The position numbers and the translations under genes are program-made. A stretch of 64,000 nt of DNA from Bacteroidaceae bacterium. Lineage in GTDB: Bacteria > Bacteroidota > Bacteroidia > Bacteroidales > Bacteroidaceae. Every line of letters starts with the position of its first letter. Positions within the stretch are counted from its first letter, which is position 1. Positions 309 to 64,000 of the stretch are shown here, piece by piece. Under the pieces are notes generated by a model, which did no database searches, had not been told where the DNA came from, and saw only the letters and a list, made by a program, of their open reading frames with translations. The stretch lies in the NCBI GenBank assembly GCA_017650105.1, contig JAGCFO010000039.1:2571-66570 (forward strand). The letters are read 5' to 3'.

Positions 309-2648
309 TTACTTCCTGCGTGAGGGTTTCTTCTTCTCGGCAGCCAGCTCAGTAGAGAAGGAGTATGGTGCGGAGTCGTCGGCGGTGCCTCGGCTGAGGT
401 TGGGCTTCGACGACATGTCGTAGACGATGGTGCCGCCCGCGGTGAGCTCTTCGTGGGTGAAGTAGTTGCGGTCTGTCTCCTGCCCATTGACGGTGATGCG
501 GCTCACGTAGGGGGCGTCGGAGGCGTTGCCGTTGGCCTTCAGCACGAGTGTCTTGCCTCCGGCGAGATGGACGGTGGCCTTGTCGAAGTAGGGCGTGCCG
601 ATGACGTACTGCCCGCTGCCTGGACAGACGGGATAGAAGCCGAGGGCGGAGAAGACATACCACGCGGAGGTCTGCCCGTTGTCCTCGTCGCCGCAGTAGC
701 CGTCGGCGTGGGCGGAGTAGAGCTTATCCATCACCTCGCGGATGTGGAGCTGTGTCTTCCAGGGCTGCCCCGAGAAGCCGTACATGTATATCATGTGCTG
801 GATGGGCTGGTTGCCGTGAGCGTAGTTGCCCATGTTCATAATCTGCATCTCGCGAATCTCGTGGATGACGCCTCCGTAGTAGCTGTCGTCGAAGAGGGGC
901 GGCACGTTGAAGACGCTGTCGAGCATCTGGTTGAAGACATCCTTGCCTCCCATGAGGGTGATGAGCCCCTGGGGGTCGTGGAAGACGCTCCAGCTGTAGT
1001 GCCAGGCGTTGCCCTCGGTGAAAGCGTTACCCCACTGGAGGGGGCTGAAGGGCTCCATCCACGAGCCGTCTTTCATGCGCCCGCGCATGAGGTTGAGCGA
1101 CGGGTCGAAGAGGTTTTTGTAGTTGAGGGCATGCTCGCGGAAGGGCTGCAGCTCTTTCTTGGGCTTGCCGAGGGCGAGGCCGAGCTTGTAGATGCTCCAG
1201 TCGTCGTAGGCATACTCGAGGGTGCGGGCTGCACTCTCGCGTATGTCGTCGCAGGGCACGTAGCCGAGCTTGTTATAGTCTTCCCATCCGAGGCGCCCGG
1301 TGCTGCTGATGTTGGGATGAACGGCATTGGCACCGTGCTTGACAGCTTCCCAGAGGGCTTCGATATCGTAGCCGCGCAGACCCTTGAGGTAGGCATCGGC
1401 GACAACGGAGGCGGAGTTGTTACCCACCATGCAGCCGCGGTGTCCCGGGCTGGCCCACTCGGGGAGGAAGCCGCTCTCCTTGTAACAGTTGACGAGGCCT
1501 TCCTGCATCTTCTCGTTCATCTCGGGATAGGCGAAGTTGAGCAGGGGGAAGAGGCAACGGAAGGTGTCCCAGAAGCCGGTGTCGGTGAAGTAGTATCCAG
1601 GGCATACCTCGCCGGTGTGGGGGCTGTAGTGGACGGGCTTGCCGTCGGCATCAATCTCGTAGAACGAACGGGGGAAGAGTACCGAGCGGTAGAGGCAGGA
1701 GTAGAAGGTGCGCAGATGGTCGACGTTGTCGTCCTCCACCTCGATGCGCCCGAGCACCTCGTTCCACCGCTGACGTCCCTTTTCCTTGACAGTTTCAAAC
1801 GAATCGTCACCCAGTTCCTTCAGGTTCTTCCACGCCTGCTCCTCGCTGATGAACGACGAAGCCACACGAACCACAATCTGCTGTCCCCTCGTGGTGCTGA
1901 AGCCCACCATCGCCATCACATGATTACCTTCCGCTTCGCTGCCCACAAACGTATTGCCGTCCTTTTGTATTCCCCAGTATTGGAATTGCGTATCAAATTG
2001 GAGAACGAAGTAGTTACGGAAGTTGCTAGGCACACCGCCGCTGTTACGTGAGGTATAACCAGTGATCGTGTTTTTGTTTACATCGTACTTGATGGCCGAG
2101 CCTTTGTCAAAGGCATCGACGACAATGCGGGCTATGCCACCCGACGTACTAGATTCGGGGAACGTGAACCGCATGATGGCAGCACGCTCGGTAGGAGCAA
2201 CTTCAGCTGTCACATCGTAATCGGCAAGATAGACACTGTAGTAATAGGGAGTAGCAGTTTCTGCCTTGTGGCTGAACCAGCTTGCACGCTTCTCCTCATC
2301 AAAAATGAGGTCTGATGTTGGTACTGGAACCCTATCGACTTCGGGCATAATGGAGAACTGTCCGTAGTCGTTGATCCAAGGACTGGGCTGATGGGTCTGC
2401 TTGATGCCGCGAATCTTGTCGTGCCAATAGACGTAGGCCCAGCCGTCGCCCATTTTGCCGGTCTGAGGTGTCCAGAAGTTCATGCCCCAGGGGAGGGCTA
2501 CGGCGGGATAAGTGTTGCCTGTGGAGAGGGCTACCTTCGAAGCGGAGCCGACAAGGGTGTTGACGTAGTCGACGGGAGTAGTTGTCTCCTTTGCCACCAT
2601 CAGCACGGGGAGAAGGAGGAGAAGGGAGAGGAAACGGAAATGACGCAT
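309..2648 (-). CDS. GH92 family alpha-mannosidase (secreted)
   Basis: ORF 309..2708. I trimmed the start to MRHFRFLSLLLLLPVLMVAKE (signal peptide, ATG at 2646-2648). GH92-type motifs are present: YAHGNQPIQHMIYMYGFSGQPWKTQ and GDEDNGQTSAWYVFSALGFYPVCPGSGQYVIGTPYFDKATV. Confidence 0.9.
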   Translation of the reverse strand: MRHFRFLSLLLLLPVLMVAKETTTPVDYVNTLVGSASKVALSTGNTYPAVALPWGMNFWTPQTGKMGDGWAYVYWHDKIRGIKQTHQPSPWINDYGQFSIMPEVDRVPVPTSDLIFDEEKRASWFSHKAETATPYYYSVYLADYDVTAEVAPTERAAIMRFTFPESSTSGGIARIVVDAFDKGSAIKYDVNKNTITGYTSRNSGGVPSNFRNYFVLQFDTQFQYWGIQKDGNTFVGSEAEGNHVMAMVGFSTTRGQQIVVRVASSFISEEQAWKNLKELGDDSFETVKEKGRQRWNEVLGRIEVEDDNVDHLRTFYSCLYRSVLFPRSFYEIDADGKPVHYSPHTGEVCPGYYFTDTGFWDTFRCLFPLLNFAYPEMNEKMQEGLVNCYKESGFLPEWASPGHRGCMVGNNSASVVADAYLKGLRGYDIEALWEAVKHGANAVHPNISSTGRLGWEDYNKLGYVPCDDIRESAARTLEYAYDDWSIYKLGLALGKPKKELQPFREHALNYKNLFDPSLNLMRGRMKDGSWMEPFSPLQWGNAFTEGNAWHYSWSVFHDPQGLITLMGGKDVFNQMLDSVFNVPPLFDDSYYGGVIHEIREMQIMNMGNYAHGNQPIQHMIYMYGFSGQPWKTQLHIREVMDKLYSAHADGYCGDEDNGQTSAWYVFSALGFYPVCPGSGQYVIGTPYFDKATVHLAGGKTLVLKANGNASDAPYVSRITVNGQETDRNYFTHEELTAGGTIVYDMSSKPNLSRGTADDSAPYSFSTELAAEKKKPSRRK

Positions 2649-3850: not shown

Positions 3851-6022
3851 TTAGTCATTGTATGTCCAGCCCGGGTTCTGCACGAGGTTCTTGTTGCGCT
3901 TCAGCTCGGTGTGAGAGATAGGCCAGAAGTACATCTTGTCGGAGAAGATAGACGAGAGGTTAAAGGTGGGGATAACCTGCATGAAGTCGTCCTTGAAGGC
4001 CTTCGTCTGGAACACATTCAAGCCGTAGATGAGAGTGTTCTCCTCGATGGGAGCATCCATCCAGCGGCGGAGGTCGAAGTAGCGCTTGCCCTCGCCCATG
4101 AGCTCGATCATGCGCTCACGCTTGATCTTGGCACGCAGCATGTCGGCACTCGCATAGACTTCGTCGGAGAAATCGGGCAAGCCCGCGCGGATGCGCACGG
4201 GATTGGTGCCGCGCTTGATCTGCTGTATGTCGCGCGACACGGTGTAGGTCTTGCTGCCGTCCCACGATGCTATCTGATAGCTTCCTGTCAGCTCATTCAG
4301 CGACTCGGCATACATGAGCAGGATGTCGGCATAGCGGATAGCAGTCTCGAACTTAGCGCGGAAGTGAGCATAGCCGTTGGAGGTGGACTCGCTATAGTCG
4401 TAGGGATGGTACCACTTCTTGATGCCGATGCCCGTGCGGGGGTAGTTGAAGTTATTGACGTAGCCGTTGCCGCTGCCGCGATAATAGAAGCACTGATACC
4501 AGCGCTGGGAGGTGGTGGTGTTGTTGCCAAGACCTTCCCACACGGCGCCGCTGTAGGCAACGCTGGCGTAGAAACGAGGCTCACGTCCCACATACTGCAG
4601 CGACACGTCGATACCGTCGGTAGGACTCTGGCGAACAGCCAACTCGGGATACTTGCCCTGACGTACCTCGGTGCGAGTGGTCCAACCTGTAGCGCGGGGA
4701 CGGTCGTTACCCTTCTCGGGAGCCCATTCGCGATACATGCCGTCGACGTCGGTACCGTCTTTCATATAATAAGTGTCGACCATCTTCTGAGTCATGCCGT
4801 GAGTGTTCCATCCTCCGCGAAGGGTAGGCATCTCATGCAGCACAAGAGCACCGATGCCGTTGTCGTTGTCGCCGATGGCCATATTGGAAACACGCGAGAA
4901 GATGAGCTCGGGATTCTCAGGAGGTGTGACGTCGCCGTCGAAGAGCTGACGATAGGATTGCATGGGGTCGATGTTGGCATATCCCTCGGGCCAATCCTTG
5001 GTGGAGAAGTTGCCGTCGTCGTAGGGAGGAACGGTAGCAGGATAGCCATCGCTGGCGGATGACGTAGCCTGCACATGATACAAATCGTAAACGCCCAGCT
5101 CCATGACGTCGCGACAGGCAGCAGCAGCACGTGCCCACTTCGACTCATCGTAGGTGAGCCCCAGGAGGGGTGTGCCGTCGAAGTTCTTGAGGGAGCGTGC
5201 GGCATCGTCGGTGACGCCCTCTGGGTGCTGCCCGTTGGCAAGCTGCCCGTTGGCAAGAGGACTGGCGGCATAGGTGAAAGCGATGGCGCGTGTTGCAAGG
5301 CAGCTGCCCTTGGTGGGACGACCTATATTGTTAGCATCGCGCTTGTAATACTGTATCTCCTCGGCTGCCTTTATCATCTCGTCGGAGATGTACTGTGCCA
5401 CCTCCTCATAGGTGCTGCGGGGAACAGCCAGGTTGTCGTAGCTCTCAGTGTAGTCGGCACCCTCATCGGGCATGATGGGCACAGGGCCGAACTTGCGGAG
5501 GAGGAGCCAGTAGTAGTAGGCGCGAACGAAACGTGCCTGCCCACGCATATCGGTGACAGCCTCTTCCGACATATCGTCGTGTCCGACAAGCTGCCCTATC
5601 TTGTGTATGAAGATAGAAGCCTGATAGATGCCCTTGTAGCACTTGATCCAAGCGTTGTAGCCCACCTCCTCGTTGTAGTTACCCTCGCGGAACGAGTTGT
5701 AGGAAGCATAGTCGGCATCCTTGTTGTCGCCATAGGCATTGTCGCGGTCGCCGTAGTAGATATCGTCGGCAAAGCAGAACGGATTCCAGTCGCCTCCGGT
5801 GCCTCCGGTGCCGCCCTTGGAACAAACCTCAAAGTTGCATCCCGTGAGGAAGGAGTAAGCATGGGCAAGCCACTGCTCAGCCTGAGACCTGTCGGTGAAA
5901 ACAAACTCTTCCGTCTTTCTGTCAACAAAGTATTTGTCAGAGTCAAGGTCTAAGCACGATGTCATGAGAGAACCGGCTAAGACTGCGGAAAATATAAAAA
6001 CGTATGATGTTTTCTTTTTCAT
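3851..6022 (-). CDS. SusD/RagB family nutrient-binding outer-membrane lipoprotein (long, about 723 aa)
   Basis: Start MKKKTSYVFIFSAVLAGSLMTSC (lipobox). Contains RAYYYWLLLRKFGPVPIM and the C-terminal FWPISHTELKRNKNLVQNPGW that is typical of SusD. It starts 14 nt after the SusC stop. Confidence 0.92.
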   Translation of the reverse strand: MKKKTSYVFIFSAVLAGSLMTSCLDLDSDKYFVDRKTEEFVFTDRSQAEQWLAHAYSFLTGCNFEVCSKGGTGGTGGDWNPFCFADDIYYGDRDNAYGDNKDADYASYNSFREGNYNEEVGYNAWIKCYKGIYQASIFIHKIGQLVGHDDMSEEAVTDMRGQARFVRAYYYWLLLRKFGPVPIMPDEGADYTESYDNLAVPRSTYEEVAQYISDEMIKAAEEIQYYKRDANNIGRPTKGSCLATRAIAFTYAASPLANGQLANGQHPEGVTDDAARSLKNFDGTPLLGLTYDESKWARAAAACRDVMELGVYDLYHVQATSSASDGYPATVPPYDDGNFSTKDWPEGYANIDPMQSYRQLFDGDVTPPENPELIFSRVSNMAIGDNDNGIGALVLHEMPTLRGGWNTHGMTQKMVDTYYMKDGTDVDGMYREWAPEKGNDRPRATGWTTRTEVRQGKYPELAVRQSPTDGIDVSLQYVGREPRFYASVAYSGAVWEGLGNNTTTSQRWYQCFYYRGSGNGYVNNFNYPRTGIGIKKWYHPYDYSESTSNGYAHFRAKFETAIRYADILLMYAESLNELTGSYQIASWDGSKTYTVSRDIQQIKRGTNPVRIRAGLPDFSDEVYASADMLRAKIKRERMIELMGEGKRYFDLRRWMDAPIEENTLIYGLNVFQTKAFKDDFMQVIPTFNLSSIFSDKMYFWPISHTELKRNKNLVQNPGWTYND
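5227..5256 (-). repeat. Perfect in-frame 15-bp tandem duplication inside susD-like gene (encodes LANGQ-LANGQ)
   Basis: GCTGCCCGTTGGCAA at 5227-5241 is repeated at 5242-5256. The protein reads SPLANGQLANGQHPEG. Confidence 0.9.
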
Positions 6023-13557: not shown

Positions 13558-13842
13558 AATAATCTTTTTTTCAACTCCAAACTTTTCTTTCCTCCTTTTA
13601 AATTTTAATTCCCTTTTTCGGAAAACCCGCGATGAAAGCCCTTTTGGCAGAGTCAGCCTCATCCTCTTGCAGAATCTCCCCGGGAGGAGGAGAAAAGTGC
13701 GGATATGTGCCTTTTTTCGGGCGGAAATGGCGAATAGGGAAATGCGCGTTTTGCCACTCTCTCTCGAGTGGGGCATTTGGCTCATTTTGCCCCTTTTCAT
13801 CGGGAAAAATCGCTGCTTTGAGCAAGATGAAATATGCTCAAA

Positions 13843-13927
13843 GAAAAAAAATTTTTCCCTTCTTCATACGGCGATATGAAGAAAGAAAAAATTTTTTTGG
13901 AGAAGGAATAATTTCGGCTCGTTCTCC
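13843..13927. repeat. 21-bp-phased GAAGAAGG-core repeat family, locus A (inverted arrangement) in the divergent PUL / T9SS-cluster control region
   Basis: A8T5-CCCTTCTTC-ATACGGCGATAT-GAAGAAAG-A6T7-GGAGAAGG-AATAATTTCGGCT-CGTTCTCC. Degenerate units (for example CCCTTTTTCGGAAAA, GATGAAAAGGGG on the other strand) continue leftwards to about 13600. Confidence 0.85.
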
Positions 13928-27278: not shown

Positions 27279-28049
27279 ATGATGAAAAGACTATTCATGA
27301 CGATGGCCGTCGTGATGAGCGCAGCCATAGCCCTCGCTGAGGGAGATGTTACGAAAGAGAAGTTCAAACCCTTCTATACCCGCGAAGAGGCTCCTCACCT
27401 CGAAAACGTGATACCCGCACCTCCTACGCTCGTCGACCCTCTATTCTTCAACGACTGGGCACAGTTCCAATGGGGTCTTTCCGTGCGTGACAGCGAACGT
27501 GGCAAACAAGCTGTGGAAGACGCACACATCAACGCTACCTACTTCATGAAGCGCTATAGCGAGGCTACTGACATCGAGTTGACACCAGAAACCCATCCCG
27601 AGCTGTTCCGCCTCTTCTCTCGCCTTCATCTCACCGAGCAACAGGCAGGCGCTAGCGCCAAACTCTATTTCCAACGCGTACGCCCCTACCAGCAGTACAA
27701 GGAGCCTTCTGCGGTACCTGACCATGAGAATCCCACCGATTTTACGAGCTACCCCTCGGGGCATACCCACGCCTCCTGGTTAGTGGGACTGACACTTGTC
27801 ACCCTTGAACCCGAACACACCGAGCAGATTATGAAGATTGCCTACGAGTTGGGGCAGAGCCGAGTCATCGTGGGCTTCCACTATCAAAGCGACGTCGATA
27901 TGGGACGCATTGCCGGCAGCATTACTTTCGCACGTGTGATGGCAGAGCCTGAGTTCCAGAAGCAATACGAAAAGGCAAAGAAAGAGTACGAAAAAGTCAG
28001 AAAGGAACACGAGAAAGCCAAAAAGGAGTTCGGTAGGAAAAAGCGGTAA
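27279..28049 (+). CDS. Class A (PAP2 family) acid phosphatase with lysine/glutamate-rich C-terminal tail
   Basis: Signal peptide. PAP2 motifs KLYFQRVRPY, SYPSGHTHASW and SRVIVGFHYQSDVDMGR. Tail KAKKEYEKVRKEHEKAKKEFGRKKR. Confidence 0.85.
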   Translation: MMKRLFMTMAVVMSAAIALAEGDVTKEKFKPFYTREEAPHLENVIPAPPTLVDPLFFNDWAQFQWGLSVRDSERGKQAVEDAHINATYFMKRYSEATDIELTPETHPELFRLFSRLHLTEQQAGASAKLYFQRVRPYQQYKEPSAVPDHENPTDFTSYPSGHTHASWLVGLTLVTLEPEHTEQIMKIAYELGQSRVIVGFHYQSDVDMGRIAGSITFARVMAEPEFQKQYEKAKKEYEKVRKEHEKAKKEFGRKKR

Positions 28050-28217
28050 GAATCTGCCCAGCCCACCCTCGTGAATCACTAGCGCACTCATATTCATCGC
28101 CTCACACTAATTCCTTGTTACATCTTCATACGACTCCACTCAGCATATCCATTCAAGGAAATTCCATCTTTTCGTCCAACGCGTCACTTGATGTAATCAG
28201 CTTAACACAATTGAGTG

Positions 28218-28595
28218 ATGAAACACATCGTTTTTTCATTTCTTCTAATCGGTTTGCTTCTATGCTCTTGCAGTAGAAACAAAGCGAATCCGAATCAGTC
28301 AACTCACATTTCGGCAGAAATGGCATACGAAGGAGTAAAAAAATATTGTCATAGCACTTACGACTGGGGTATAGCAGAAAACAATCCTTCCATCATGTAT
28401 GTAGAGATGGGAGATGAAACCGAATCTGAGTACAAGGTGATGTTCCGCAGTTATACGGGTACCTTCGTGTATTTCTATGTAGACAAGTCAAGTGGTGTGA
28501 CAAGAATGGTAGAATGTGTTCCAGCACTAGGCATTAAAAGCGACGCCGGAACCATTAATATCTTTGATTTCCTGGAAAACAGACAACCAAACTAA
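28218..28595 (+). CDS. Small lipoprotein, unknown function
   Basis: MKHIVFSFLLIGLLLCSCSRNK lipobox (ATG at 28218; the track start at 28215 is a GTG). No family recognised. Confidence 0.6.
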   Translation: MKHIVFSFLLIGLLLCSCSRNKANPNQSTHISAEMAYEGVKKYCHSTYDWGIAENNPSIMYVEMGDETESEYKVMFRSYTGTFVYFYVDKSSGVTRMVECVPALGIKSDAGTINIFDFLENRQPN

Positions 28596-28602
28596 CGGGC
28601 AG

Positions 28603-28685
28603 TTTTTTCCTTCTCGAAAAAATTTTTTTCCTTCTCCAGCGCGCGAGATGAAGAAAGAAAAAATTTTTTTGGAGAAGGGAAAAAA
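28603..28685. repeat. Repeat family locus B: two reverse units + AGCGCGCGAGAT + two forward units, forming an imperfect inverted repeat with about 35-bp arms
   Basis: T6CCTTCTCGA6T7CCTTCTCC AGCGCGCGAGAT GAAGAAAGA6T7GGAGAAGGGA6. Lies between convergent stops at 28595 (+) and 28805 (-). Confidence 0.9.
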
Positions 28686-28804
28686 CCGAGAGGAGCCAAC
28701 CTTATAATTTTGGCACCCTATATCATCATTTCCGATATACCAAATATCCGCAGAGAGTCTCTGCGGATATTTGGTTTTCCTCTGTCGTAGCCGTATAAAA
28801 AAGA

Positions 28805-32535: not shown

Positions 32536-32634
32536 TAATTATGAGTTAAGAAAAAAGATTTTTGGAGAACAAATATCGCGATATGAAGAAGGGAAAAAAT
32601 TTTTTCGAGAAGGGAAAAATAATTATGAGTTAAG
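32536..32634 (+). repeat. Repeat family locus C (3 units) bounded by a perfect 15-bp direct repeat TAATTATGAGTTAAG
   Basis: TAATTATGAGTTAAG (32536-32550), then AAAAAAGATTTTT GGAGAAC AAATATCGCGATAT GAAGAAGG GAAAAAATTTTTT CGAGAAGG GAAAAA, then TAATTATGAGTTAAG (32620-32634). Lies between the lptC stop and the CorC-family start. Confidence 0.9.
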
Positions 32635-36114: not shown

Positions 36115-36330
36115 TAGTTGTCTGAAACCTGTTTCCTTCGTTTGTACAAACGCGAAAATTTTTGCAAAGATGATACTTTTTGCTGAATTGAGCAAAAGAA
36201 GATGTTTAAAAAACCTATAAAGAGATTGAAAACTTTTTAATTTCCGCTCCTTTTCTGTCCGTCGGATGCGGAAGAAGCGTCAAAAAAGAGGGATATTTTG
36301 CCGTACGGGATTGGCTGTTTGTCCACACGA

Positions 36331-36412
36331 TTTTTTTCGTTCTCCAGAAAAAATTATTTGTTCTCCAAAAAAATTTTTCCCTTCTTCATATCGCCGTATT
36401 TGTTCTCCAAAA
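36331..36412 (-). repeat. Repeat family locus D (4 units, reverse orientation)
   Basis: T7 CGTTCTCC AGAAAAAATTATTT GTTCTCC A7T5 CCCTTCTTC ATATCGCCGTATTT GTTCTCC AAAA. Its reverse complement closely matches locus C (GGAGAACAAATAYSGCGATATGAAGAAGGGAAAAA..TTTTT). Lies in a divergent intergenic region (36115-36576). Confidence 0.9.
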
Positions 36413-36548
36413 TGAGCGTTTCCCAAAGCAAAATCCAGGCTGCCCGAGGGGGCGTTCTGGATAGCTTCTGATGGAGGAGCAAAAGACGACAAAAGGGTGA
36501 GAAAGAAAAAAGTGGATAGTCTTTTTTCGAAATGTCAATACATTTTCC

Positions 36549-43732: not shown

Positions 43733-43815
43733 GAAGAAACCATCCGGCAATATGAAGAAGGAATATCCCAATATGAAGAAAGAAACGCGCGAGATGAAGA
43801 AGGGAAAAAAATTTA
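43733..43815 (+). repeat. Repeat family locus E (4 units), beginning 12 nt after the secA stop
   Basis: Cores GAAGAAAC (43733), GAAGAAGG (43754), GAAGAAAG (43775) and GAAGAAGG (43796) are spaced exactly 21 bp apart. Spacers: CATCCGGCAATAT, AATATCCCAATAT, AAACGCGCGAGAT, GAAAAAAATTTAT. Confidence 0.9.
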
Positions 43816-43910
43816 TGCTTTCTACATATTGCCGTATGCTCAAAGCATATTGAGAAACGAAAAGCAAACTATACAGCATCGGGCAATAAACAACTGAAAA
43901 GAGCAAGACG

Positions 43911-45690: not shown

Positions 45691-45803
45691 GTAGAGAGGA
45701 AAACGAATTATGAAGAAGGGAAAAAAATTTTTCGAGAAGGAAAAAAAATTTTTGGAGAAGGAAACGCGCGAGATGAAGAAGGGAAAAAATTTTTTGGACA
45801 AAG
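45691..45803 (+). repeat. Repeat family locus F (5-6 units)
   Basis: Cores at 45712, 45733, 45754, 45775 and 45796 (exact 21-bp steps), with a degenerate GAGAGGAA at 45694. Spacers are A7T5, A8T5, AAACGCGCGAGAT and A6T6. Lies in the 632-bp intergenic region upstream of the TetR-RND operon. Confidence 0.9.
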
Positions 45804-52694: not shown

Positions 52695-54686
52695 ATGAAA
52701 CACAACATTCTCACTCTCCATTTCCTTTGCCTCTTCGGGGCTGCATTGTGCACTCTATCCAGCTGCGAGAAGAGCAACTCTCCTGCCAGCAGCAGCGAAA
52801 GAGCAACAGACTCATTCGTTTCCTCAGGCGACTATGCTATCCCTTCTGACTTGCCTGCCTACGGAACCGTAGCAGACGGTGTGTACTTGGAACCCCTTTG
52901 CTGGTGGACCGGGATGAATACCCCTTTGCAGATTATGGCACACGCCGACAGCATCGGCGCCTGCGATGTTCGCATTGAGGGAAATCGCCAAGTAAAAGTG
53001 AAAGCGGTACATACCGCTGACAGCCCTAACTACCTCTTCATCGATGTGGAGATAGCACCTAAGGCCAAGCCCGGCACTGTCGAACTTGTCTTCTCGAAAG
53101 AAGGAAAAGAGGTTGTCCGTCAGCCTTACAGCATCTATGCTCGTGCTGAGGGGTCTGCCTACCGTCAGGGGTTCACGACGGCTGATATGATTTATCTCAT
53201 CATGCCCGATCGTTTTGCCAACGGTGACACCTCGAATGACAACACCTCCCTTGCCGAAGAGAAGAGCAACCGCTCCGACTCCTTCGGGCGTCACGGAGGC
53301 GATCTTCAGGGTATCATCAACCATCTCGACTATCTCGACACGCTGGGTGTTACGGCTATCTGGTGCACGCCCCTCACCTTCGACAACGAGCGTCATGCAT
53401 CCTTTCACGGATATGCTGCTTCCGACTACGTTCACATCGATCCCCGATACGGCACCAACAGTCTCTTCAAGACTTACGTGAAAGAGTGTCACGACAAAGG
53501 CATCAAGGTTGTGATGGACTTCGTGCCCAATCACTGCGGTGCCCGTCATTGGTGGATGCGTGATCTCCCCTTCAACGACTGGATACACCAGTTCCCGCAC
53601 TACACGAAGAGCAACTTCTGCTTCTCGCCCAATATGGATGTCAATGCCTCCAAAAAAGATCTCTTCTATCAGGAGAGCGGATGGTTCGCCAACTCGATGC
53701 CCGACATGAATCTCGACAACCCCTTCGTGCTCCGCTACTTCCAGCAGGTAGCTGTGTGGTGGGTTGAGTGGAGCGGGCTCGACGGCATACGCATCGACAC
53801 CTACCCCTACAACGAGAAGGTTCCCGCTTCGATGCTCTGTAAGGCTATCACCGACGAATATCCCCGACTCAACATCGTGGGAGAGTGCTGGACTCTCAGC
53901 GTGCCGCAGCTCGCCTATTGGCAGGGGGGGAACCCGAACGCTGACGGCTTCGACAGCCATCTGCCTTCCATCATGGACTTTCCTCTTCGCGATGCTATCG
54001 TTCGTGGCCTTCCTGAGGAGCGTCCTGGATGGGGCGAGGGGCTCACACGCATCTACGATGCCCTCTCGCACGATTTCGCCTATCACGATCTCTCGCACAT
54101 GCTCATCTTCGCTGCCAATCACGACACCGAACGTCTGGGCAGCATCGTTCGCGGGAATGTCGATAGGATGAAGATGATAACCGTGCTGCTGGCTACGCTG
54201 CGCGGCATTCCGCAGACCTATTACGGCGACGAGTTGATGTTCCTCAATTCCGACGACAGAGGCGACAGCGCCTGGCGCCGTGAGTTCAGCGGAGGCTGGG
54301 AAGGCGACGAGGTCAACCTCTTCACAGCTGAAGGACGCACACCCGAGCAGGAGGACCTCTATCGTTTCAACAGCCGTCTGTGGCAATGGCGCAAGAGTGC
54401 CCAAGTGGTTCAAAAGGGCAAAACTCTCCATTTCCTCACTCGCGACAATACCTATGCCTACTTCCGCTACCTCCCTGCTGAGGAGGGCAAGACGATAGAG
54501 AAAGCCGTCTTTGTTTACCTCAACAACAGCAACGAGGACAAGCATGTTCCCTGGAGCTACTACGACGAAATCACCCCTCGTCTCGGTTCCTCCGCCACAG
54601 ATGTCCTCACAGGTGCTCCCGCATCCGTCTCCGACGCCACAGTCGTCCCTGCTGGCAAATTGTTGGTAGTAGAGTTTTCTAAGTGA
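52695..54686 (+). CDS. GH13 alpha-amylase family enzyme (cyclomaltodextrinase/neopullulanase-like), lipoprotein
   Basis: True start MKHNILTLHFLCLFGAALCTLSSC (ATG at 52695, 1 nt after the PII-like stop). The four GH13 regions are present: VMDFVPNHCG, DGIRIDTYPY, IVGECW and FAANHDTER. DRFANGDTSND and GGDLQGIINHLDYLDTLGVTAIW are also present. Confidence 0.92.
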   Translation: MKHNILTLHFLCLFGAALCTLSSCEKSNSPASSSERATDSFVSSGDYAIPSDLPAYGTVADGVYLEPLCWWTGMNTPLQIMAHADSIGACDVRIEGNRQVKVKAVHTADSPNYLFIDVEIAPKAKPGTVELVFSKEGKEVVRQPYSIYARAEGSAYRQGFTTADMIYLIMPDRFANGDTSNDNTSLAEEKSNRSDSFGRHGGDLQGIINHLDYLDTLGVTAIWCTPLTFDNERHASFHGYAASDYVHIDPRYGTNSLFKTYVKECHDKGIKVVMDFVPNHCGARHWWMRDLPFNDWIHQFPHYTKSNFCFSPNMDVNASKKDLFYQESGWFANSMPDMNLDNPFVLRYFQQVAVWWVEWSGLDGIRIDTYPYNEKVPASMLCKAITDEYPRLNIVGECWTLSVPQLAYWQGGNPNADGFDSHLPSIMDFPLRDAIVRGLPEERPGWGEGLTRIYDALSHDFAYHDLSHMLIFAANHDTERLGSIVRGNVDRMKMITVLLATLRGIPQTYYGDELMFLNSDDRGDSAWRREFSGGWEGDEVNLFTAEGRTPEQEDLYRFNSRLWQWRKSAQVVQKGKTLHFLTRDNTYAYFRYLPAEEGKTIEKAVFVYLNNSNEDKHVPWSYYDEITPRLGSSATDVLTGAPASVSDATVVPAGKLLVVEFSK

Positions 54687-54688
54687 AA

Positions 54689-57600
54689 ATGAAAAAGAAA
54701 AAATTCTTTTTCCTTCTTCTTAGCGCGATATTCCTTCTTCTCGCACTCTGTTTTGTTCTCCACACGCGTACGGTGAAGCTCAGCAAGAGCGAGCTGATGG
54801 ATAAGATTAAAGGAGGTTGGGCAGGACAGACGATAGGCTGTGCCTACGGAGGTCCTACCGAGTTCTGCTATCGCGGCGTGATGATTCCCGACGAGACACC
54901 CATTGTCTATCCCGAGCATCACCTGCAGCATTTCTTCGACCGTTCTCCCGGGCTCTACGACGACATCTATATGGACCTAACCTTCGTCAACGTCCTGTCC
55001 CGTCTGGGACTTGATGCGCCCGTCGACTCCGTTGCACACGCCTACGCTTATGCCCCCTATCCCCTCTGGCACGCCAACCAAGCTGCGCGATACAACATCC
55101 AGCACGGCATCCTTCCTCCCGCCTCGGGGCATTGGCGCAACAATCCTCATGCCGACTGCATCGACTATCAGATCGAGGCCGACTACGCAGGACTCATGTC
55201 GCCCGCTATGCCCAACGCTGCATCGGCTCTCAGCAACCGCATTGGGCACATCATGAACTATGGTGACGGCTGGTACGGAGGCGTCTTCGTGGGAGCGATG
55301 TATGCGCTTGCCTTCGTCGAGAACGATGTGGAAGCCATCGTCACAAAAGCGCTGAAGACAATTCCCCGCAACACTAAGTTCCACAGTTGCCTGAGCGACG
55401 TCATCAGATGGTACAAGGAAGACCCTACCGACTGGAAGCGTGCCTGGCAGCTCTACAACGAGCGTTGGAGCGACGATGTGGGCTGTCCCGAGCTGGTGCT
55501 TGCACCGGGCAACATCGACGCCACTATGAACTCCGCCTACGTAGCAATAGGCTTGCTCTTCGGTCAGGGCGACTTCGGGCGTACGCTTGAGATATCCACC
55601 CGCTGCGGGCAAGACTCCGACTGCAACCCCTCGACGGCAGGAGGCGTGCTCGCTACGATGCTTGGCTACAGCCACATCCCCGAGGAGTGGATGCCCAACG
55701 TGCGCGAAGTGGAAAATCGCCCCTTTGCCTACACTGACATCTCGCTCAACAGCGCCTACAGCATGACTTACGAGCTTGCCCTCCAGCAGATTATCCGCAA
55801 CGGGGGACGTGTGAGCGAAGACGCCGTACGCATCAAGGCGCAGAAACCTCGTGCCGTTCAGTGGGAGCAGGGCTTCCCCGACATGCACCCCGTGCTGCTT
55901 ACCGAAAATGTCCTCCTCTCCGACACCACACAGGCTGAACCCCTGACGCTCTCCTTCGAGGGAAAGGGAATCGCTGTCTATGGCCAGCTGAGTTGTCCCG
56001 ACAAAGACTACTCCGCAGAGTTGGAAGTCAGCGTCGACGGAAAGACCGACCGAGTTGTCAACCTCCCTGCCGACTTCCTTCAGCGCACGGCCGACTGCCT
56101 CTACTGGAACTACGACCTCCCCGAGGGCTCGCACACCGTCTCCTTCCGGCTTCTCAATCCCCGCTCTGGCGCTGAAGTAAGAGCCTACAAGGTTATCCGA
56201 TATCTGTCTGGTTCTTCCGTGCAGGAAGCGAATAAGGAGGATGTGCTGCAGCACGTCAACCTCTTCATCGGCACCGCTAACGACTATGGGCAGATGGCTC
56301 CCGGGGCATGCATGCCCTACAGTCAGATACAAGTGTCGCCCGACAGCAAGCCGCGTCAGCATCCCGGCTACGACTATGAGGTTGCCCGCATCTCGGGCTT
56401 CAGCATCAACCGCCTCTCTGGCGTGGGCGGCAGCGGCTGTGGAGGCAACGTGTCGCTGATGCCCGATGCGACAGGTAACGATGTGCAGCTGCTGAAATCA
56501 ACCGAGCAGGCCTCTCCCGGCTACTATGGTGTGCAGCTTACAAACGGTGTGTCGTTTGCCGCTACTGCCGACCGACGTATGGCAATCGAGCGTTTCACGT
56601 TCCCCTCACCTGCAAGCGCCGTTCTGCTGCTCAACCCCTCCTCTGCCTTCGATCGAGTACACAGCGCTTCATTCCGTCAGACGGACGACTGCGTAGGGCA
56701 AGGGTACATCGATTGTGCCAACACCTGTGGGCGGGGAAGCTATCATCTCCATTACCGGCTCTTCTCTTCGGCGCCTTTCGCCTTGGAAGAGCAAGCCGAC
56801 GGCATGAAGAAACTGTCGTTCCCCGCGCTCACCGACAATACAGTCGAAATACGCATCGTGGTTTCTACGGGATTGGCACAGGAGCTGGATGCCCTCCCCG
56901 AGTCCGACGTCTGGCGCACGACCTTCGACGAGAAAGTCGTACAGGCCCGTGAAGCTTGGCGCCAGCTGCTCTCTGCCGTTGAGGTGGAGGGAGGCTCTGC
57001 CGATGAGCGCACACTCTTCTACACCTCGCTCTACCGCACCTTCCACAGCCCCTTCCAGGTTACCGACAGCACTATGCGCCACTATCTGGGCACCGACGGC
57101 AGTGTGCACGAGGCACGCGACTTTACCTACTACAGCTCTTGGTCGTTGTGGGACACCTATCGCACCAAGTTCCCCCTGATAACGCTGCTCGACGCACAGC
57201 GCTCGGCCGACATTATGCAGTCGCTCGCGACCCTCTATATGACGGGGAAGAAAGACTGGAGCACAGCCTTCGAGTGTGTGCCTACCGTGCGCACCGAGCA
57301 TGCTGTCGCCACTCTTCTCGATGCTTACCGGCAGGGTGTCTCTATCCCCAACCTACGCGAAGCCTATCCCGGGATGACGAAGGAGGTTGAAGGACTCTCG
57401 CTGAAGAGCCCCGACCAGTGTCTTGAGGCTGCAGGCGACTTCTGGGCGCTGGGGCAGCTGGCACAGGAACTGGGCATCAAGGACGATGCTGCGCGATGGG
57501 CACGCCGCGGGGAGGAAATCTTCGACAGCATCTGGCCTCAGGAGTTTCAGACCATCGACAGCTCATTTGTCAAGATGCGCGGAAACGGACTCTATCAGGG

Positions 57601-58186
57601 CACCCGTTGGCAGTATCGATGGGGAGCACCCATGTATCTCAACCGCATGACAGCCCTTGTGGGCAAGAAAGAGCTGGCACACGAGTTGCTGACATTCTTC
57701 GAGCAGCAGCTTTACAATCAGGGCAACGAGCCCGACATCCACGTACCCTTCCTCTTCGGGCGACTGGGCATGCCTGCGCAGACAGGCCTCACCGTGCGTC
57801 CGCTGGCAACCGAGGTGGTTACCCACCGCTACGGGGGAAACGATGCCTATCCCGTTCCCTGGGAGGGATGCGCCTTCGTGAACGCTCCTCGCGGCTATGC
57901 ACCCGAGATGGATGAGGACGACGGAGCTATGAGCGCGTGGTATGTGTTTGCCAGCATGGGACTCTATCCCTTAGTGGTGGGCGAGGCACAGTATGAGGTT
58001 TTCTCACCCCTCTTCGACAAAGTGACGCTTCATCTCAACGGCAACGACGTCGTCATCAGCACTCAGGGACGCAAGGATGTCAACCAGCCGCTGAAGAGCG
58101 TCACATGGAACGGGAAGCGTCTGCGCCATTTCCAGATATCCGTCTCGGAGCTCAAGAAGGGCGGCAAGCTTGTGATGCACTATTAA
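54689..58186 (+). CDS. Fusion protein: N-terminal ADP-ribosylglycohydrolase-family domain + beta-sandwich + C-terminal GH92-like alpha-mannosidase module
   Basis: TM/signal anchor MKKKKFFFLLLSAIFLLLALCF. ARH-like KIKGGWAGQTIGCAYGGPTEF ... GQDSDCNPSTAGGVLATMLGY. GH92-like VNLFIGTANDYGQMAPGACMPYSQIQVSPDS, GNEPDIHVPFLFGRLGMPAQT and EMDEDDGAMSAWYVFASMGLYPLVVGEAQYEVFSPLFDKVTLHL. The track start at 54683 is a GTG; an ATG lies at 54689. Confidence 0.85.
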   Translation: MKKKKFFFLLLSAIFLLLALCFVLHTRTVKLSKSELMDKIKGGWAGQTIGCAYGGPTEFCYRGVMIPDETPIVYPEHHLQHFFDRSPGLYDDIYMDLTFVNVLSRLGLDAPVDSVAHAYAYAPYPLWHANQAARYNIQHGILPPASGHWRNNPHADCIDYQIEADYAGLMSPAMPNAASALSNRIGHIMNYGDGWYGGVFVGAMYALAFVENDVEAIVTKALKTIPRNTKFHSCLSDVIRWYKEDPTDWKRAWQLYNERWSDDVGCPELVLAPGNIDATMNSAYVAIGLLFGQGDFGRTLEISTRCGQDSDCNPSTAGGVLATMLGYSHIPEEWMPNVREVENRPFAYTDISLNSAYSMTYELALQQIIRNGGRVSEDAVRIKAQKPRAVQWEQGFPDMHPVLLTENVLLSDTTQAEPLTLSFEGKGIAVYGQLSCPDKDYSAELEVSVDGKTDRVVNLPADFLQRTADCLYWNYDLPEGSHTVSFRLLNPRSGAEVRAYKVIRYLSGSSVQEANKEDVLQHVNLFIGTANDYGQMAPGACMPYSQIQVSPDSKPRQHPGYDYEVARISGFSINRLSGVGGSGCGGNVSLMPDATGNDVQLLKSTEQASPGYYGVQLTNGVSFAATADRRMAIERFTFPSPASAVLLLNPSSAFDRVHSASFRQTDDCVGQGYIDCANTCGRGSYHLHYRLFSSAPFALEEQADGMKKLSFPALTDNTVEIRIVVSTGLAQELDALPESDVWRTTFDEKVVQAREAWRQLLSAVEVEGGSADERTLFYTSLYRTFHSPFQVTDSTMRHYLGTDGSVHEARDFTYYSSWSLWDTYRTKFPLITLLDAQRSADIMQSLATLYMTGKKDWSTAFECVPTVRTEHAVATLLDAYRQGVSIPNLREAYPGMTKEVEGLSLKSPDQCLEAAGDFWALGQLAQELGIKDDAARWARRGEEIFDSIWPQEFQTIDSSFVKMRGNGLYQGTRWQYRWGAPMYLNRMTALVGKKELAHELLTFFEQQLYNQGNEPDIHVPFLFGRLGMPAQTGLTVRPLATEVVTHRYGGNDAYPVPWEGCAFVNAPRGYAPEMDEDDGAMSAWYVFASMGLYPLVVGEAQYEVFSPLFDKVTLHLNGNDVVISTQGRKDVNQPLKSVTWNGKRLRHFQISVSELKKGGKLVMHY

Positions 58187-59431: not shown

Positions 59432-59497
59432 AACAAACCTGATAAAAGCTTACAAACCTGACAAGAGTTTACAAACCTGATGAAAGTTTAGAAACCC
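59432..59497. repeat. 19-bp tandem direct repeat, 3 full units + partial: (A/T)ACAAACCTGAYRARAGYT
   Basis: AACAAACCTGATAAAAGCT (59432-59450), TACAAACCTGACAAGAGTT (59451-59469), TACAAACCTGATGAAAGTT (59470-59488), TAGAAACCC (partial). The last units overlap the stop and final codons of the C69 dipeptidase gene. Confidence 0.85.
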
Positions 59498-61077: not shown

Positions 61078-61938
61078 TTATTTTGCTGAGATGCTGAATT
61101 GGAGGACTACTGGATAATGGTCTGATATGAAGGGCACTCCGTACGTCTTGTCACGCAGCACGCTGAAGCTGAGCGCCTTGCAGTCGCGGATGTAGATGTG
61201 GTCTATCATGTGCGCGGGCACGTTCTCATCCTTAAAGGCGTTGTAGGTGGAGCGGTTGTCGGTGACGGGGGCAATGTCGCGCGACGAGAGCAGGCCTGCC
61301 TCCTTCAGGGGGGCGAAGAAGGGCTCTGACGAATGGCTGTTCATATCGCCGCTGAGCACAACGGGTGTGCCTGCTGGCACTATCTGGCTGATGCGCTGAC
61401 AGATGAGCTTGATGGACTCCTGCCGTGCTGTGACGCCCACGTGGTCGAGATGGGTGTTGAAGTAGAAGATTTCCTTGCCCGACTTCTTATGCCTGAGGCG
61501 CACCCAGGTCACCGTGCGCTTGCAGGCGGCATCCCACCCCAGCGTAGGCTCTTCAGGAGTCTCGCTGAGCCAGAAAGTGCCGCTATCAAGAAGCTTGAAG
61601 GCTCGCTTACGGTAGTATATGGCCATACACTCGCCCTCGCTCTTGCCGTCGTCACGTCCCACGCCCACGTGCCCGAAGGTGCGGCGCGTGTGCTTGTTGA
61701 AGAAGGCCATCTGATCGGGCAACGCTTCCTGGAGGCCCAGCAAGTCGGGCTTCTCCACCTTCAGCAACGTCAGAGATGCCTTCTTGCGGTGCTCCCAGTC
61801 GTTCACGCCGTCTTTGGCTCCGCTATTGCGGACATTGAAACTCATCACACTCAGCTCCTGCGCAAAGGACGGCACAGCGATGCAAGCCAAGAGCACCGCG
61901 AGGAGCAGTTTACGTATACAGTCACTCAGATTTCTCAT
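61078..61938 (-). CDS. Endonuclease/exonuclease/phosphatase (EEP) family protein, secreted
   Basis: LSVMSFNVRNSG..., LLGLQEA, SGDMNS and ISDHYPVVLQF motifs. Its stop is 12 nt from the C69 gene start. Confidence 0.85.
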   Translation of the reverse strand: MRNLSDCIRKLLLAVLLACIAVPSFAQELSVMSFNVRNSGAKDGVNDWEHRKKASLTLLKVEKPDLLGLQEALPDQMAFFNKHTRRTFGHVGVGRDDGKSEGECMAIYYRKRAFKLLDSGTFWLSETPEEPTLGWDAACKRTVTWVRLRHKKSGKEIFYFNTHLDHVGVTARQESIKLICQRISQIVPAGTPVVLSGDMNSHSSEPFFAPLKEAGLLSSRDIAPVTDNRSTYNAFKDENVPAHMIDHIYIRDCKALSFSVLRDKTYGVPFISDHYPVVLQFSISAK

Positions 61939-62132
61939 AGCATTCGTTCTTTAATGATTCGGTTCAGCAAAGGTAAGCCGATTCTCCTACAGATGCAACA
62001 GAAAAGGAGGAAAAAAGCACCCTTCGAGCGATTTTTTCACGCGCATCGAGGCAGACAACCCACTATCCTACCCCATCCTGACGATTGAGCGGCAAAAGAT
62101 CTTCGCAAAACGGAGAGACTTTGCAGTTCTGT

Positions 62133-62279
62133 GAAGAAGGAAACGCGCGAGATGAAGAAAGAAGCGCGCGAGATGAAGAAGGAAACGCGCGAGATGAAGA
62201 AGGAAGCGCGCGGGATGAAGAAGGAAACACGCGGGATGAAGAAGGAAACACGCGGGATGAAAAAGGGAACGTTCGTAAA
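62133..62279 (+). repeat. Repeat family locus G: seven head-to-tail 21-bp units (147 bp)
   Basis: GAAGAAGGAAACGCGCGAGAT / GAAGAAAGAAGCGCGCGAGAT / GAAGAAGGAAACGCGCGAGAT / GAAGAAGGAAGCGCGCGGGAT / GAAGAAGGAAACACGCGGGAT (x2, identical) / GAAAAAGGGAACGTTCGTAAA. Lies in the divergent region between the EEP gene start (61938) and the ppiD start (62480). Confidence 0.95.
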
Positions 62280-62397
62280 GAGGAGATTTTTGCCTTACGA
62301 CTCCCATTTTGCCAACTTCCACACATATAAAAAAGGAGAAAAAAGCTCAATTTTTGATTTTTTTTGCCAATTATGATGAAGTATGTGTTTTTTTGTG

Positions 62398-62405
62398 TAC
62401 TTTTG
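62398..62405 (+). promoter_or_regulatory. Candidate -7 box TACTTTTG for ppiD
   Basis: 74 nt upstream of the ATG at 62480. Confidence 0.45.
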
Positions 62406-62479
62406 CACGCTAAAATATTCAGCACGTCTGAAGATAGCACTTTTTTACGGATAAACAATAAACTAAATAACTGTTACAA

Positions 62480-64000
62480 ATGGCAACATTAGGAAAGATT
62501 AGAAAGCACGGGTGGTTGCTGCTTGTCGTCATCGGCATCGCCCTTCTCGCCTTCATCGTCGGTGACGGAATCAAGGCTATCCGCCCTACCCAGAACCAGC
62601 GCTTCATAGGTGAAATCAATGGCGACAAAGTCTCCGTACAAGAATATCAGGAGGCACTCGACGAATACACCGACGTGGTGAAATTCGCACGCGGCACACA
62701 GTCACTCACCGACGCCCAGATGAACCAGATCAAGGACGAGGTGTGGAACCAGATCGTAACCAAGAAGCTCATCAACGAAGAAGTGGGCAAGATGGGCGTT
62801 ACCGTAACTCCCGCCGAGATCGAGGCCGCCCTCACCGAAGGCACCAACCAACTGCTCACCCAGTCGATGTTCGTCAACCAGCAGGGCAAGTTTGACAAGG
62901 ACCTCCTCTACAACTTCCTCAACGAATACAAGGAGATGGATCTCAACACGATGCCCGCACAGTATGTAGACTACTATCAGAGCGTGTACAACTACTGGAA
63001 GTTCATTGAGAAGAACCTGACCCAGGAACTGCTTCTGAACAAATATGAGGCTCTCGTCACCAACGCACAGATGAGCAACCCCGTGAGCGCACAGAGCGCA
63101 TACGACGGACGCAACAACTACTGCAAGCTGGCCTATGCCGTGATTCCCTTCACAAGCATCGCCGACTCCACCGTCACCGTTTCCGACGCTGACATCAAGG
63201 CCCTCTACAACAGCCGCAAGGAGAGCTATCGCCAGTATGCCGAGACTCGCGACCTTCAGTACATCGACATCGCAGTCGTTCCCAGCGACGAGGACCGCGC
63301 TGCCCTTCAGGCAGAGATGGCCGAGAGAGCACAGGAGCTGGCTGAGGCAACACCCGAAAATATGGCATCGGTGATTCGCCTTTCTGAATCGACCGAGACC
63401 TTCAGCGAAGTGCCCCGCACCGCTGCCGGCCTGCCCGCCGACATCGCCGAGCGCATCGCTACGGCTGCCATCGACGCCGTAGAGCCCGTTTACTATAACG
63501 AGGAGGACGACTCCTACAACACCTTCCGCCTGTTGGCCAAGACCGTAGGCCCCGACTCTATCCAGTATCGTCAGATTCAGGTTGCTGAAGAAGAGGCCGC
63601 ACGCACAGCCGAACTGGCCGACAGCATCTACGACGCACTCGTGCACGGTGCCGACTTCGCAGAGCTCGCACAGCGCTACGGACAGCAGGCTGAGCCCCAG
63701 TGGGTGAACTCCGCAAGCTATGAGGGTGGAGCTATCACGGGCGAGAACGCTACTTATATCAACACGCTCAACGGTATGAAGGCCGGCGAGCTGAAAAAAC
63801 TGGAGTTCAGCGGAGCAACCCTCATCGTGAACGTTACCGCAACGAAGAACCCCGTTGAGAAGTATCAGGTGGCTATGATCAAGCGTCCCGCTTACTTCAG
63901 CAAGGAGACCTACAACAATGCCTACAACAAGCTGAGCCAGTTTGTCGCTTCAAACCAAACAAGCGAGGAATTTGAGGCTAACGCCGAAGAGGCCGGCTTC
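62480..64000 (+). CDS. ppiD: PpiD-like periplasmic chaperone / peptidyl-prolyl isomerase (SurA N-terminal domain protein), 5' 507 codons, runs off the right edge
   Basis: Open-ended, so absent from the ORF track. The ATG at 62480 gives MATLGKIRKHGWLLLVVIGIALLAFIVGDGIKAIRPTQNQRFIGEINGDKVSVQEYQEALDEY..., with no stop to position 64000 (exactly 507 codons). The N-terminal TM anchor plus SurA_N-like region fit PpiD. The listed minus ORF 62702..63646 is its antisense shadow. Confidence 0.8.
   Translation, partial: MATLGKIRKHGWLLLVVIGIALLAFIVGDGIKAIRPTQNQRFIGEINGDKVSVQEYQEALDEYTDVVKFARGTQSLTDAQMNQIKDEVWNQIVTKKLINEEVGKMGVTVTPAEIEAALTEGTNQLLTQSMFVNQQGKFDKDLLYNFLNEYKEMDLNTMPAQYVDYYQSVYNYWKFIEKNLTQELLLNKYEALVTNAQMSNPVSAQSAYDGRNNYCKLAYAVIPFTSIADSTVTVSDADIKALYNSRKESYRQYAETRDLQYIDIAVVPSDEDRAALQAEMAERAQELAEATPENMASVIRLSESTETFSEVPRTAAGLPADIAERIATAAIDAVEPVYYNEEDDSYNTFRLLAKTVGPDSIQYRQIQVAEEEAARTAELADSIYDALVHGADFAELAQRYGQQAEPQWVNSASYEGGAITGENATYINTLNGMKAGELKKLEFSGATLIVNVTATKNPVEKYQVAMIKRPAYFSKETYNNAYNKLSQFVASNQTSEEFEANAEEAGF

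Follow-up and report, generated by a model that had tools for sequence, protein, structure and literature searches.

A 21-bp tandem array between divergent EEP and ppiD-like promoters varies in unit number among related Bacteroidaceae and belongs to a dispersed intergenic repeat family

The stretch of DNA analyzed here (termed the window) comprises 64,000 nt of contig JAGCFO010000039.1 of a Bacteroidaceae bacterium, and the subject of this report is a non-coding array of seven head-to-tail 21-bp units present at positions 62133 to 62279, between the promoters of two divergent genes. On the minus strand, a gene for an EEP family protein (endonuclease/exonuclease/phosphatase) of 286 amino acids occupies positions 61078 to 61938, with a PF03372 (Exo_endo_phos) assignment being available for an identical protein. 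On the plus strand, a gene for a PpiD-like periplasmic chaperone of 713 amino acids, with domain matches to SurA_N_2/3 and Rotamase_2, occupies positions 62481 to 64000, where it is cut by the end of the window. The intergenic region between these genes is 542 bp. Only two exact Bacteroidetes-type −7 boxes (regex TAnnTTTG) were detected between positions 61900 and 62520, namely, TACCTTTG of the EEP gene (61968 to 61975, minus strand) and TACTTTTG of the ppiD-like gene (62398 to 62405, plus strand). Both boxes face away from the array, indicating that the repeat sits in the spacer between divergent core promoters, a spacer that is presumably untranscribed. The array is located 158 bp from the EEP −7 box and 195 bp from the start codon of that gene (61938), with the ppiD −7 box being 119 bp away on the other side; the original prediction, made from the letters of the window, had placed it about 195 bp and about 120 bp from the latter two features. 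A scan for sigma-70-type promoters and terminators gave background levels, the sigma-70 type not being relevant to Bacteroidetes promoters.

Analysis of the 64-kb window with Tandem Repeats Finder (TRF) reported the array as positions 62132 to 62271 with a period of 21, 6.7 copies, 90% matches, no indels and a score of 210, the highest for the whole window, while a repeat search recovered seven in-register copies with an exact 21-nt spacing. A unit pattern allowing up to 3 mismatches was matched eight times in the window relative to an expectation of 0.00 (100 shuffles). The first six units (62133 to 62258, plus strand) are of a CG type, consisting of a purine core, GAAGAAGGAAA, followed by the spacer CGCGCGAGAT and variants of these sequences. 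Units 1 and 3 are identical (GAAGAAGGAAACGCGCGAGAT), units 2 and 4 are A/G variants, and units 5 and 6 are identical to each other and carry CACGCGGG. The seventh unit, GAAAAAGGGAACGTTCGTAAA (62259 to 62279, plus strand), is divergent, with 7 to 9 mismatches to the other units; five of the seven units are distinct in sequence. The extent of the array, the number of units and their sequences were exactly as first described. The array is purely direct and contains no inverted repeat. RNA folds predicted for both strands paired only the CGCGCG self-complementary hexamers of different units, and a structured RNA was rejected as a reading of the array. With Rfam 15, no part of the window reached the gathering score of any model, and positions 61900 to 62520 gave no match even at an E value of ≤1.

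The locus was compared across contigs (designated by L numbers) encoding the identical EEP protein, products of the repeat reading frames or PpiD homologues, the latter with identities of 98, 98, 97, 91, 85, 71 and 58%. The closest named relatives were metagenome-assembled genomes (MAGs) of "Bacteroidaceae bacterium"; their sample label, XIEF21, presumably denotes a ruminant gastrointestinal MAG set. The seven units of the window were present, without change, in L001, L002 and L010, whose flanks are 99.3 to 100% identical to those of the window. Six units were detected in L009 (flanks of 93.5 to 95% identity) and in L015, five units in L016 (flanks of 86 to 93% for both L015 and L016) and five units in L023, which encodes a PpiD protein with 98% identity. 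Neither the number nor the sequence of the units was, therefore, the same in all relatives; the five haplotypes, all derived from short-read assemblies, had 7, 6, 6, 5 and 5 units, in keeping with the predicted variation in copy number between strains.

Differences between the haplotypes extended to the sequence of the units. Variants were fixed across the whole array in each lineage, with units reading ...GCGAGAT in the window and L009 and ...GCAGGAT in L015, L016 and L023, and no unit type was common to these two lineages. Units are, therefore, homogenized within each lineage, a pattern of concerted evolution that is expected for slippage or unequal exchange and that supports the mechanism suggested in the original prediction. 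For the 29 units of the five haplotypes, nearly all of the variation consisted of A-to-G or G-to-A differences, and core positions 3, 5, 6 and 8 were invariant. Unit 7 was unchanged in L009 while the other units had turned over. The 4-fold degenerate sites of the ppiD genes of L015, L016 and L023 were ∼87% identical to those of the window type. Tandem repetition beyond chance, a variable unit number and concerted evolution were all observed, and the array is, hence, a bacterial variable-number tandem repeat (VNTR), or minisatellite.

The sequences around the promoters were conserved. Among the five haplotypes covering the 90 nt around the EEP −7 box, there was one variable position, and the ∼180 nt from about position 62300 to the ppiD ATG were conserved in all haplotypes except for a few positions. 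The region of the ppiD −7 box was still recognizable in the more distant contigs L017, L018 and L020. Distances between the two −7 boxes were 430, 429, 407, 385 and 385 bp in the five haplotypes, such that the helical phase between the boxes drifts (7 to 10 modulo 10.5), and the idea of a preserved phase was rejected. A separate observation concerns the EEP gene of L010, an otherwise near-identical strain, in which the ATG reads ATC (positions ∼4205 to 4210 of that contig, equivalent to window positions 61936 to 61938) and the protein is called 31 amino acids shorter, at 255 amino acids.

Four open reading frames (ORFs) run through the array (62063 to 62458, 62068 to 62322, 62085 to 62330 and 62131 to 62376), and the ORF listing returned the same four that the original prediction had dismissed as products of the repeat. 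The last of these, on the plus strand, is an 81-amino-acid (MKKETRE)n frame. A genuine small protein with these heptads, starting at position 62131 or 62152 and ending at 62376, would explain why the frame is open and has been reported by gene callers for several assemblies, at lengths of 74, 67, 60 and 59 amino acids, and why each unit begins with ATG. A close 21-bp relative of the unit is, moreover, translated in the same frame (EKKESRE/EKKESCE) within the tail of an LptB-like ATPase located ∼5 kb away. The frame is, however, interrupted by an in-frame TAA in unit 5 of L015, leaving a 33-amino-acid call, and a 1-nt indel within a T run of L002 moves the end of the ORF (74 to 86 amino acids) and so alters the C terminus. 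Within the ORF tail, all seven codons differing between the window and L009 were nonsynonymous with no excess of third-position changes, as read from the alignment. Among the 5.8 billion proteins searched, the repeat ORF had only two homologues, each of them encoded at this same locus. No plus-strand −7 box matching TAnnTTTG was found upstream of the array, leaving the repeat ORFs without a visible promoter, and other copies of the repeat (see below) are palindromic or have 22-nt units, which are incompatible with a conserved frame. A real protein is, on these grounds, very improbable. The frames through the array are not conserved and are artifacts of its 21-nt (7-codon) period, as had been claimed at the outset.

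The array proved to be no stand-alone minisatellite. The core ATGAAGAAGGRAA was detected 18 times in the window relative to an expectation of 0.12. Repeat loci were then defined by BLAST searches with the element sequences combined with a scan for cores phased 20 to 23 nt apart; this approach recovered seven intergenic loci across the 64 kb of the window and three from 22 kb of the sister species L018, with none in shuffled sequences. The density is, hence, about one locus per 7 to 9 kb in the DNA sampled. The original prediction had treated the array as a locus-specific minisatellite; the same module is present at six further intergenic loci in the window, and the array is an expanded module of this dispersed family and its largest local copy. 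No family locus was detected in ∼80 kb from L020 (71% PpiD identity), L021 and L022 (58%) and L006 to L008. Each module consists of a purine core, GARGAAGGRAA, and a 10-nt spacer, with the known spacers (CGCGCGAGAT, AAAAATTTTT(C/G) or TATCGCGATA) being mutually unrelated. Each locus is a run of 2 to 8 units of 21 (to 22) bp in either orientation.

The six other members in the window occupy a variety of settings. Member A (13825 to 13915) consists of two units that form a palindrome between divergent genes, while member B (28598 to 28692) has two units followed by two inverted units in a convergent intergenic region. Both, together with locus I of L018, form long palindromes, and these palindromic members are AT rich. 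REP/REPIN sequences, in comparison, are GC-rich palindromes of 20 to 40 nt linked to a RAYT transposase. Member C (32548 to 32628, plus strand) has about three units between LptC-like and CNNM-like genes, and member D (36330 to 36420, minus strand) has about four. Member E (43745 to 43838, plus strand), downstream of secA, has three units, including GAAGAAAGAAACGCGCGAGAT at position 43775. Member F (45705 to 45800, plus strand) has four units, including at position 45754 a CG-type unit, GGAGAAGGAAACGCGCGAGAT, that is 1 nt different from the array unit. The 755-bp "convergent" region containing member B (28050 to 28804) also has two plus-strand TAnnTTTG boxes (28559 and 28705), and an unannotated small gene or small RNA may be present there. 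A fixed distance or orientation of the family relative to promoters was rejected, as members are 98 to 268 bp from exact −7 boxes and several loci have no exact box. No functional theme was found among the neighboring genes, which include those for glycoside hydrolases, SecA, a TetR-family regulator, PAP2 and Lnb.

Comparison of the members also clarified the nature of unit 7. Five of the other loci (A, C, D, E and F) have a CG-rich spacer followed by the module ATGAAGAAGGGAAAAAATTTTTT, with which the run of units ends at C, E and F. The junction, CGCG..(G)AT followed by GAAGAAGGGAA, is common to positions 43794, 45773, 32583, 36389 (minus strand) and 13867 (minus strand). Unit 7 of the array (ATGAAAAAGGGAAC...) is found in exactly this terminal position, indicating that it is the counterpart of the terminal "GGG" module of the family (ATGAAGAAGGGAAAAAA...) and that units 1 to 6 represent the amplified CG-type module. 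The original view of unit 7 as a decayed copy was, therefore, abandoned.

Repeats of related or similar period were also observed within coding sequences. An LptB-like ABC ATPase has a C-terminal tail made of about five tandem 21-bp units, GAGAAGAAAGAATCC(C/T)GCGAG, located at positions 9529 to 9623 of L010, just outside the window (gene coordinates of 5020 to 6066 in L015, 5810 to 6856 in L016 and 477 to 1517, minus strand, in L001). These units encode the heptads EKKESRE and EKKESCE; one is identical to an intergenic unit at 17 of 21 positions and is in the same frame as MKKETRE. The unit content of the tail differs between L010 and L015, and the orthologue in L018 ends in an acidic P/E/T tail of unrelated sequence. 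A second 21-bp period (TRF, 3.2 copies; 27960 to 28027) is present at the C terminus of a PAP2-family ORF (27279 to 28049) and encodes YEKAKKE, YEKVRKE and HEKAKKE; this tail is possibly related to the family, as another translated case, or is a coiled-coil-like sequence of separate origin. At positions 54697 to 54740, the 5′ end of a plus-strand ORF (54683 to 58186) encodes a signal-peptide-like sequence (MKKKKFFFLLLSAIFLLLALC) and matches reversed family units (GAGAAGAAGGAATATCGCGCTAAGAAGAAGGAAAAAGAATTTTTTC), which may reflect exaptation or low-complexity convergence. A 19-bp tandem repeat (59433 to 59496; 3.4 copies of ACAAACCTGATAAAAGTTT) in the intergenic region between an esterase gene and the 3′ end of a peptidase C69 gene is unrelated to the 21-bp family.

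The dispersal of the family raised the question of mobility, with the array representing the internal minisatellite of a non-autonomous MITE (miniature inverted-repeat transposable element), similar to BrickBuilt, that would be spread by a transposase encoded elsewhere. The family is dispersed and strictly intergenic, reaches a high copy number and is confined to one lineage, and no family element was recovered from L018 and L019 in the intergenic region matching that of locus D, which is shorter in these contigs. Two further features pointed in the same direction: an 11-nt sequence directly to the left of the array, GAGACTTTGCA at position 62115, resembles the IS5-type terminal inverted repeat (TIR) of BrickBuilt, GAGACCTTTGCA, and a 14-nt direct repeat flanks locus C. 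An all-against-all BLAST of 10 loci with 200 nt on each side, however, found that similarity ended at the units, with no leader, tail or TIR common to the copies. The TIR-like string was rejected as a chance-level match; it is unique in the window, where 1.5 chance matches are expected with up to 1 mismatch, and has no conserved counterpart in L015, L016 or L023. The supposed target-site duplication is found only at locus C and resembles a degenerate start of a unit (AATTATGA...), a sequence also present at F and at locus H of L018. A blastn search of the locus against plasmid and phage collections gave no match. A MITE origin is, in view of these results, improbable. The CGCGCGAGATGAAGAARGRAA pattern had three single matches in JGI metagenome contigs and one in IMG/VR, all in unrelated coding sequence and at chance level. 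The EEP protein had only 47 to 49% identical relatives among GTDB species representatives, and the species itself was not recovered. The literature yielded nothing for the unit sequence strings and no description of the family was found.

More distant relatives provided evidence on the history of the site. The contig of L017 (91% PpiD identity) starts within a GAAGAAGGAAAAAAATTTTTTCCCTTCTC module ∼225 nt upstream of ppiD. In L018 and L019 (85%), the intergenic region of 1,236 bp contains a palindromic element of the AT type, the end of which is ∼230 nt upstream of ppiD, while L020 (71%) has an intergenic region of 227 bp and no element. An element would, so far as can be judged from these contigs, already have been present, ∼200 to 230 nt upstream of ppiD, before the clade united by a PpiD identity of at least 85% diversified, and the amplification of CG-type units is specific to the lineage of the window. 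Identities to the window at 4-fold degenerate sites were 0.53 for L017, 0.51 for L018 and 0.50 for L020, indicative of saturation. Unit number also differed at a second orthologous locus, as the LptC/CNNM intergenic region has about three units in the window (member C) and about seven to eight in L018 (4591 to 4727). Persistence across saturated divergence is indicative of selection or of continuing homogenization between copies rather than of simple neutral decay. The EEP/ppiD intergenic region of L018 (9168 to 9318) and of L019 has, in addition, perfect 27-nt inverted repeats, TGTGACAGTTGTGACAGATGACAGTTA, on either side of 97 nt of AT-rich sequence; such a layout is that of an invertible promoter (inverton) of Bacteroidales and is absent from the 542-bp region of the window.

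This persistence is one of several features that would be explained if the units were phased, iteron-like binding sites for a lineage-specific DNA-binding or nucleoid-associated protein recognizing GARGAAGGRAA. A spacing of 21 bp corresponds to two helical turns and would place the cores on one face of the helix, and a change in the number of units would adjust occupancy, or the architecture of the DNA, between the EEP and ppiD promoters. The period is constant at 21 (to 22) bp across loci despite the unrelated 10-nt spacers, the invariant core positions noted above are surrounded by changes that are nearly all between A and G, elements have been kept upstream of ppiD and between lptC and the CNNM gene, and the array lies outside both transcription units. 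Set against this, the conservation of the core is partly circular as members were found by searching with the core. Elements occur in divergent, convergent and tandem contexts, at the variable distances from −7 boxes and without the neighbor-gene theme described above; the box-to-box phase drifts, and a related unit is tolerated within coding sequence. Binding of such a protein is conceivable but unlikely. A broader version, in which a clade-restricted system of genome architecture would combine a putative protein-bound core at every second helical turn, intergenic positions (the EEP/ppiD spacer among them) that are actively maintained despite saturated neutral divergence, unit number as a tunable regulatory parameter in place of neutral variation in length and, with 21 bp amounting to seven codons, translated heptads at gene termini, must be regarded as doubtful.

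The explanation considered probable is that the array is a non-coding VNTR, produced by local amplification and homogenization of one module of a lineage-specific dispersed repeat, between conserved divergent promoters. A family element would first have been present ∼200 to 230 nt upstream of ppiD in the clade ancestor. In the lineage of the window, the CG-type module (GAAGAAGGAAA plus CGCGCGAGAT) would then have been multiplied to five to seven copies ahead of the terminal "GGG" module, most likely by replication slippage or unequal recombination, with the copies being continually homogenized. The length of the array would alter the separation of the promoters (385 to 430 bp) while leaving the core promoters untouched. 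The array itself would be largely neutral "spacer" DNA, and any function would be expected to belong to the conserved purine core and to act at the DNA level.

A number of observations weigh against this explanation. The same seven units are shared by the four near-identical assemblies, which represent at least three samples, indicating an absence of hypermutability over short time scales; instability was visible only between lineages differing by at least 5% in their flanks. The left-to-right gradient in unit sequence, which had been put forward as a sign of recent expansion, is a marginal hint of stepwise growth. Neighboring units do tend to be more alike (r = 0.41 between separation and mismatch), but 240 of 5,040 possible unit orders gave an equal or better correlation, as did 64 of 720 orders when only units 1 to 6 were considered. 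An element that is still recognizable at the same site despite saturated 4-fold sites, and a constant 21-bp period with interchangeable spacers, are difficult to square with purely neutral DNA and hint at selection or continuing homogenization. The copy numbers, furthermore, come from short-read assemblies in which identical units may be collapsed, such that the counts could be lower bounds. Three independent Logan contigs (L003, L004 and L005) each end inside unit 2 (at their position 1, equivalent to window position ∼62160), which suggests that the repeat, by sharing k-mers with loci E and F, fragments the assemblies of this species.

These breaks, and the three identical units of L009 at a coverage of 1.4×, could indicate that the length of the array, or its differences between contigs, are artifacts of short-read assembly. 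L001, L002 and L010 derive from different samples and assemblers, however, and agree with the window base for base. Five of the seven units are distinct and long k-mers are, hence, unique, while the differences between lineages go beyond length and include array-wide substitutions. An artifact of this kind is scarcely credible.

As a VNTR, the locus offers a ready strain marker for an uncultured lineage of Bacteroidales, presumably of the ruminant gut. It also carries two warnings, as gene callers repeatedly report a "protein" of 59 to 86 amino acids through the array and short-read assemblies break at it. The wider interest lies in the family, with its fixed 21-bp period, its persistence at orthologous intergenic sites and the translation of a related unit. 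If the units were protein bound or modulated promoters, Bacteroidales would gain a regulatory or architectural element of a new kind; otherwise, the family joins STAR, BrickBuilt and BOX-like repeats of unknown function.

In its general properties, the array is an ordinary kind of bacterial repeat, namely, an intergenic VNTR within a lineage-specific family of dispersed short repeats. It resembles the classical VNTR loci used in multiple-locus VNTR analysis (MLVA) in having head-to-tail units of more than 9 bp, an intergenic position, a lineage-variable copy number and concerted evolution. A typical VNTR is locus specific, however, while the unit of this one is shared with a dispersed family and can be found as a single copy, in inverted orientation or inside coding sequence. 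The BIME/REP sequences of enterobacteria are modular mosaics in which short motifs alternate in orientation, recalling the inverted arrangements of this family, while the pneumococcal BOX element has a variable number of an internal boxB module. Rickettsia palindromic elements are inserted in frame in protein-coding genes, a situation likened to that of the units in the LptB-like tail. We take the family to have no sequence similarity to any of these three types of element, its units being shorter and the array being purely direct with no hairpin.

The closest parallels are with two other families. The STAR elements of Staphylococcus aureus have a short core and recurring spacers, are dispersed in intergenic regions, expand and contract at individual loci and have no known function (PMC3532100). 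Their core is a 14-bp GC-rich sequence, T(G/A/T)TGTTG(G/T)GGCCC(C/A), the spacers are 40 bp or longer and the host is a Firmicute (PMC3532100). The present family is similarly lineage restricted and combines a short core with spacers that recur; its many intergenic loci grow and shrink while staying in place, and neither family has a known function or mode of propagation. It differs in having an 11-nt purine core, a fixed 10-nt spacer giving a period of 21, units in both orientations or as palindromes and a Bacteroidales host; there is no sequence relationship, and the STAR core consensus is absent from its units. BrickBuilt of Porphyromonas gingivalis is a MITE with an internal 23-nt minisatellite that is dispersed, intergenic and variable in unit number between strains, with an architecture defined by a leader, a tail and a TIR and with loci associated with spurious ORFs and assembly gaps (PMC4596501). 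Similarities to BrickBuilt comprise a Bacteroidales host, a dispersed intergenic distribution (though one related array is coding), tandem units that each span about two helical turns and have no spacer between them, a variable unit number at conserved loci, spurious ORF calls and assembly gaps. The 21-nt array unit GAAGAAGGAAACGCGCGAGAT is, in contrast, unrelated to the 23-nt AGAYCATARTATCCTCTCRTRTG, and family copies have no common leader, tail or TIR (10 loci with 200 nt on each side). As judged from these sequence comparisons, the family appears to work like STAR and BrickBuilt while belonging to neither.

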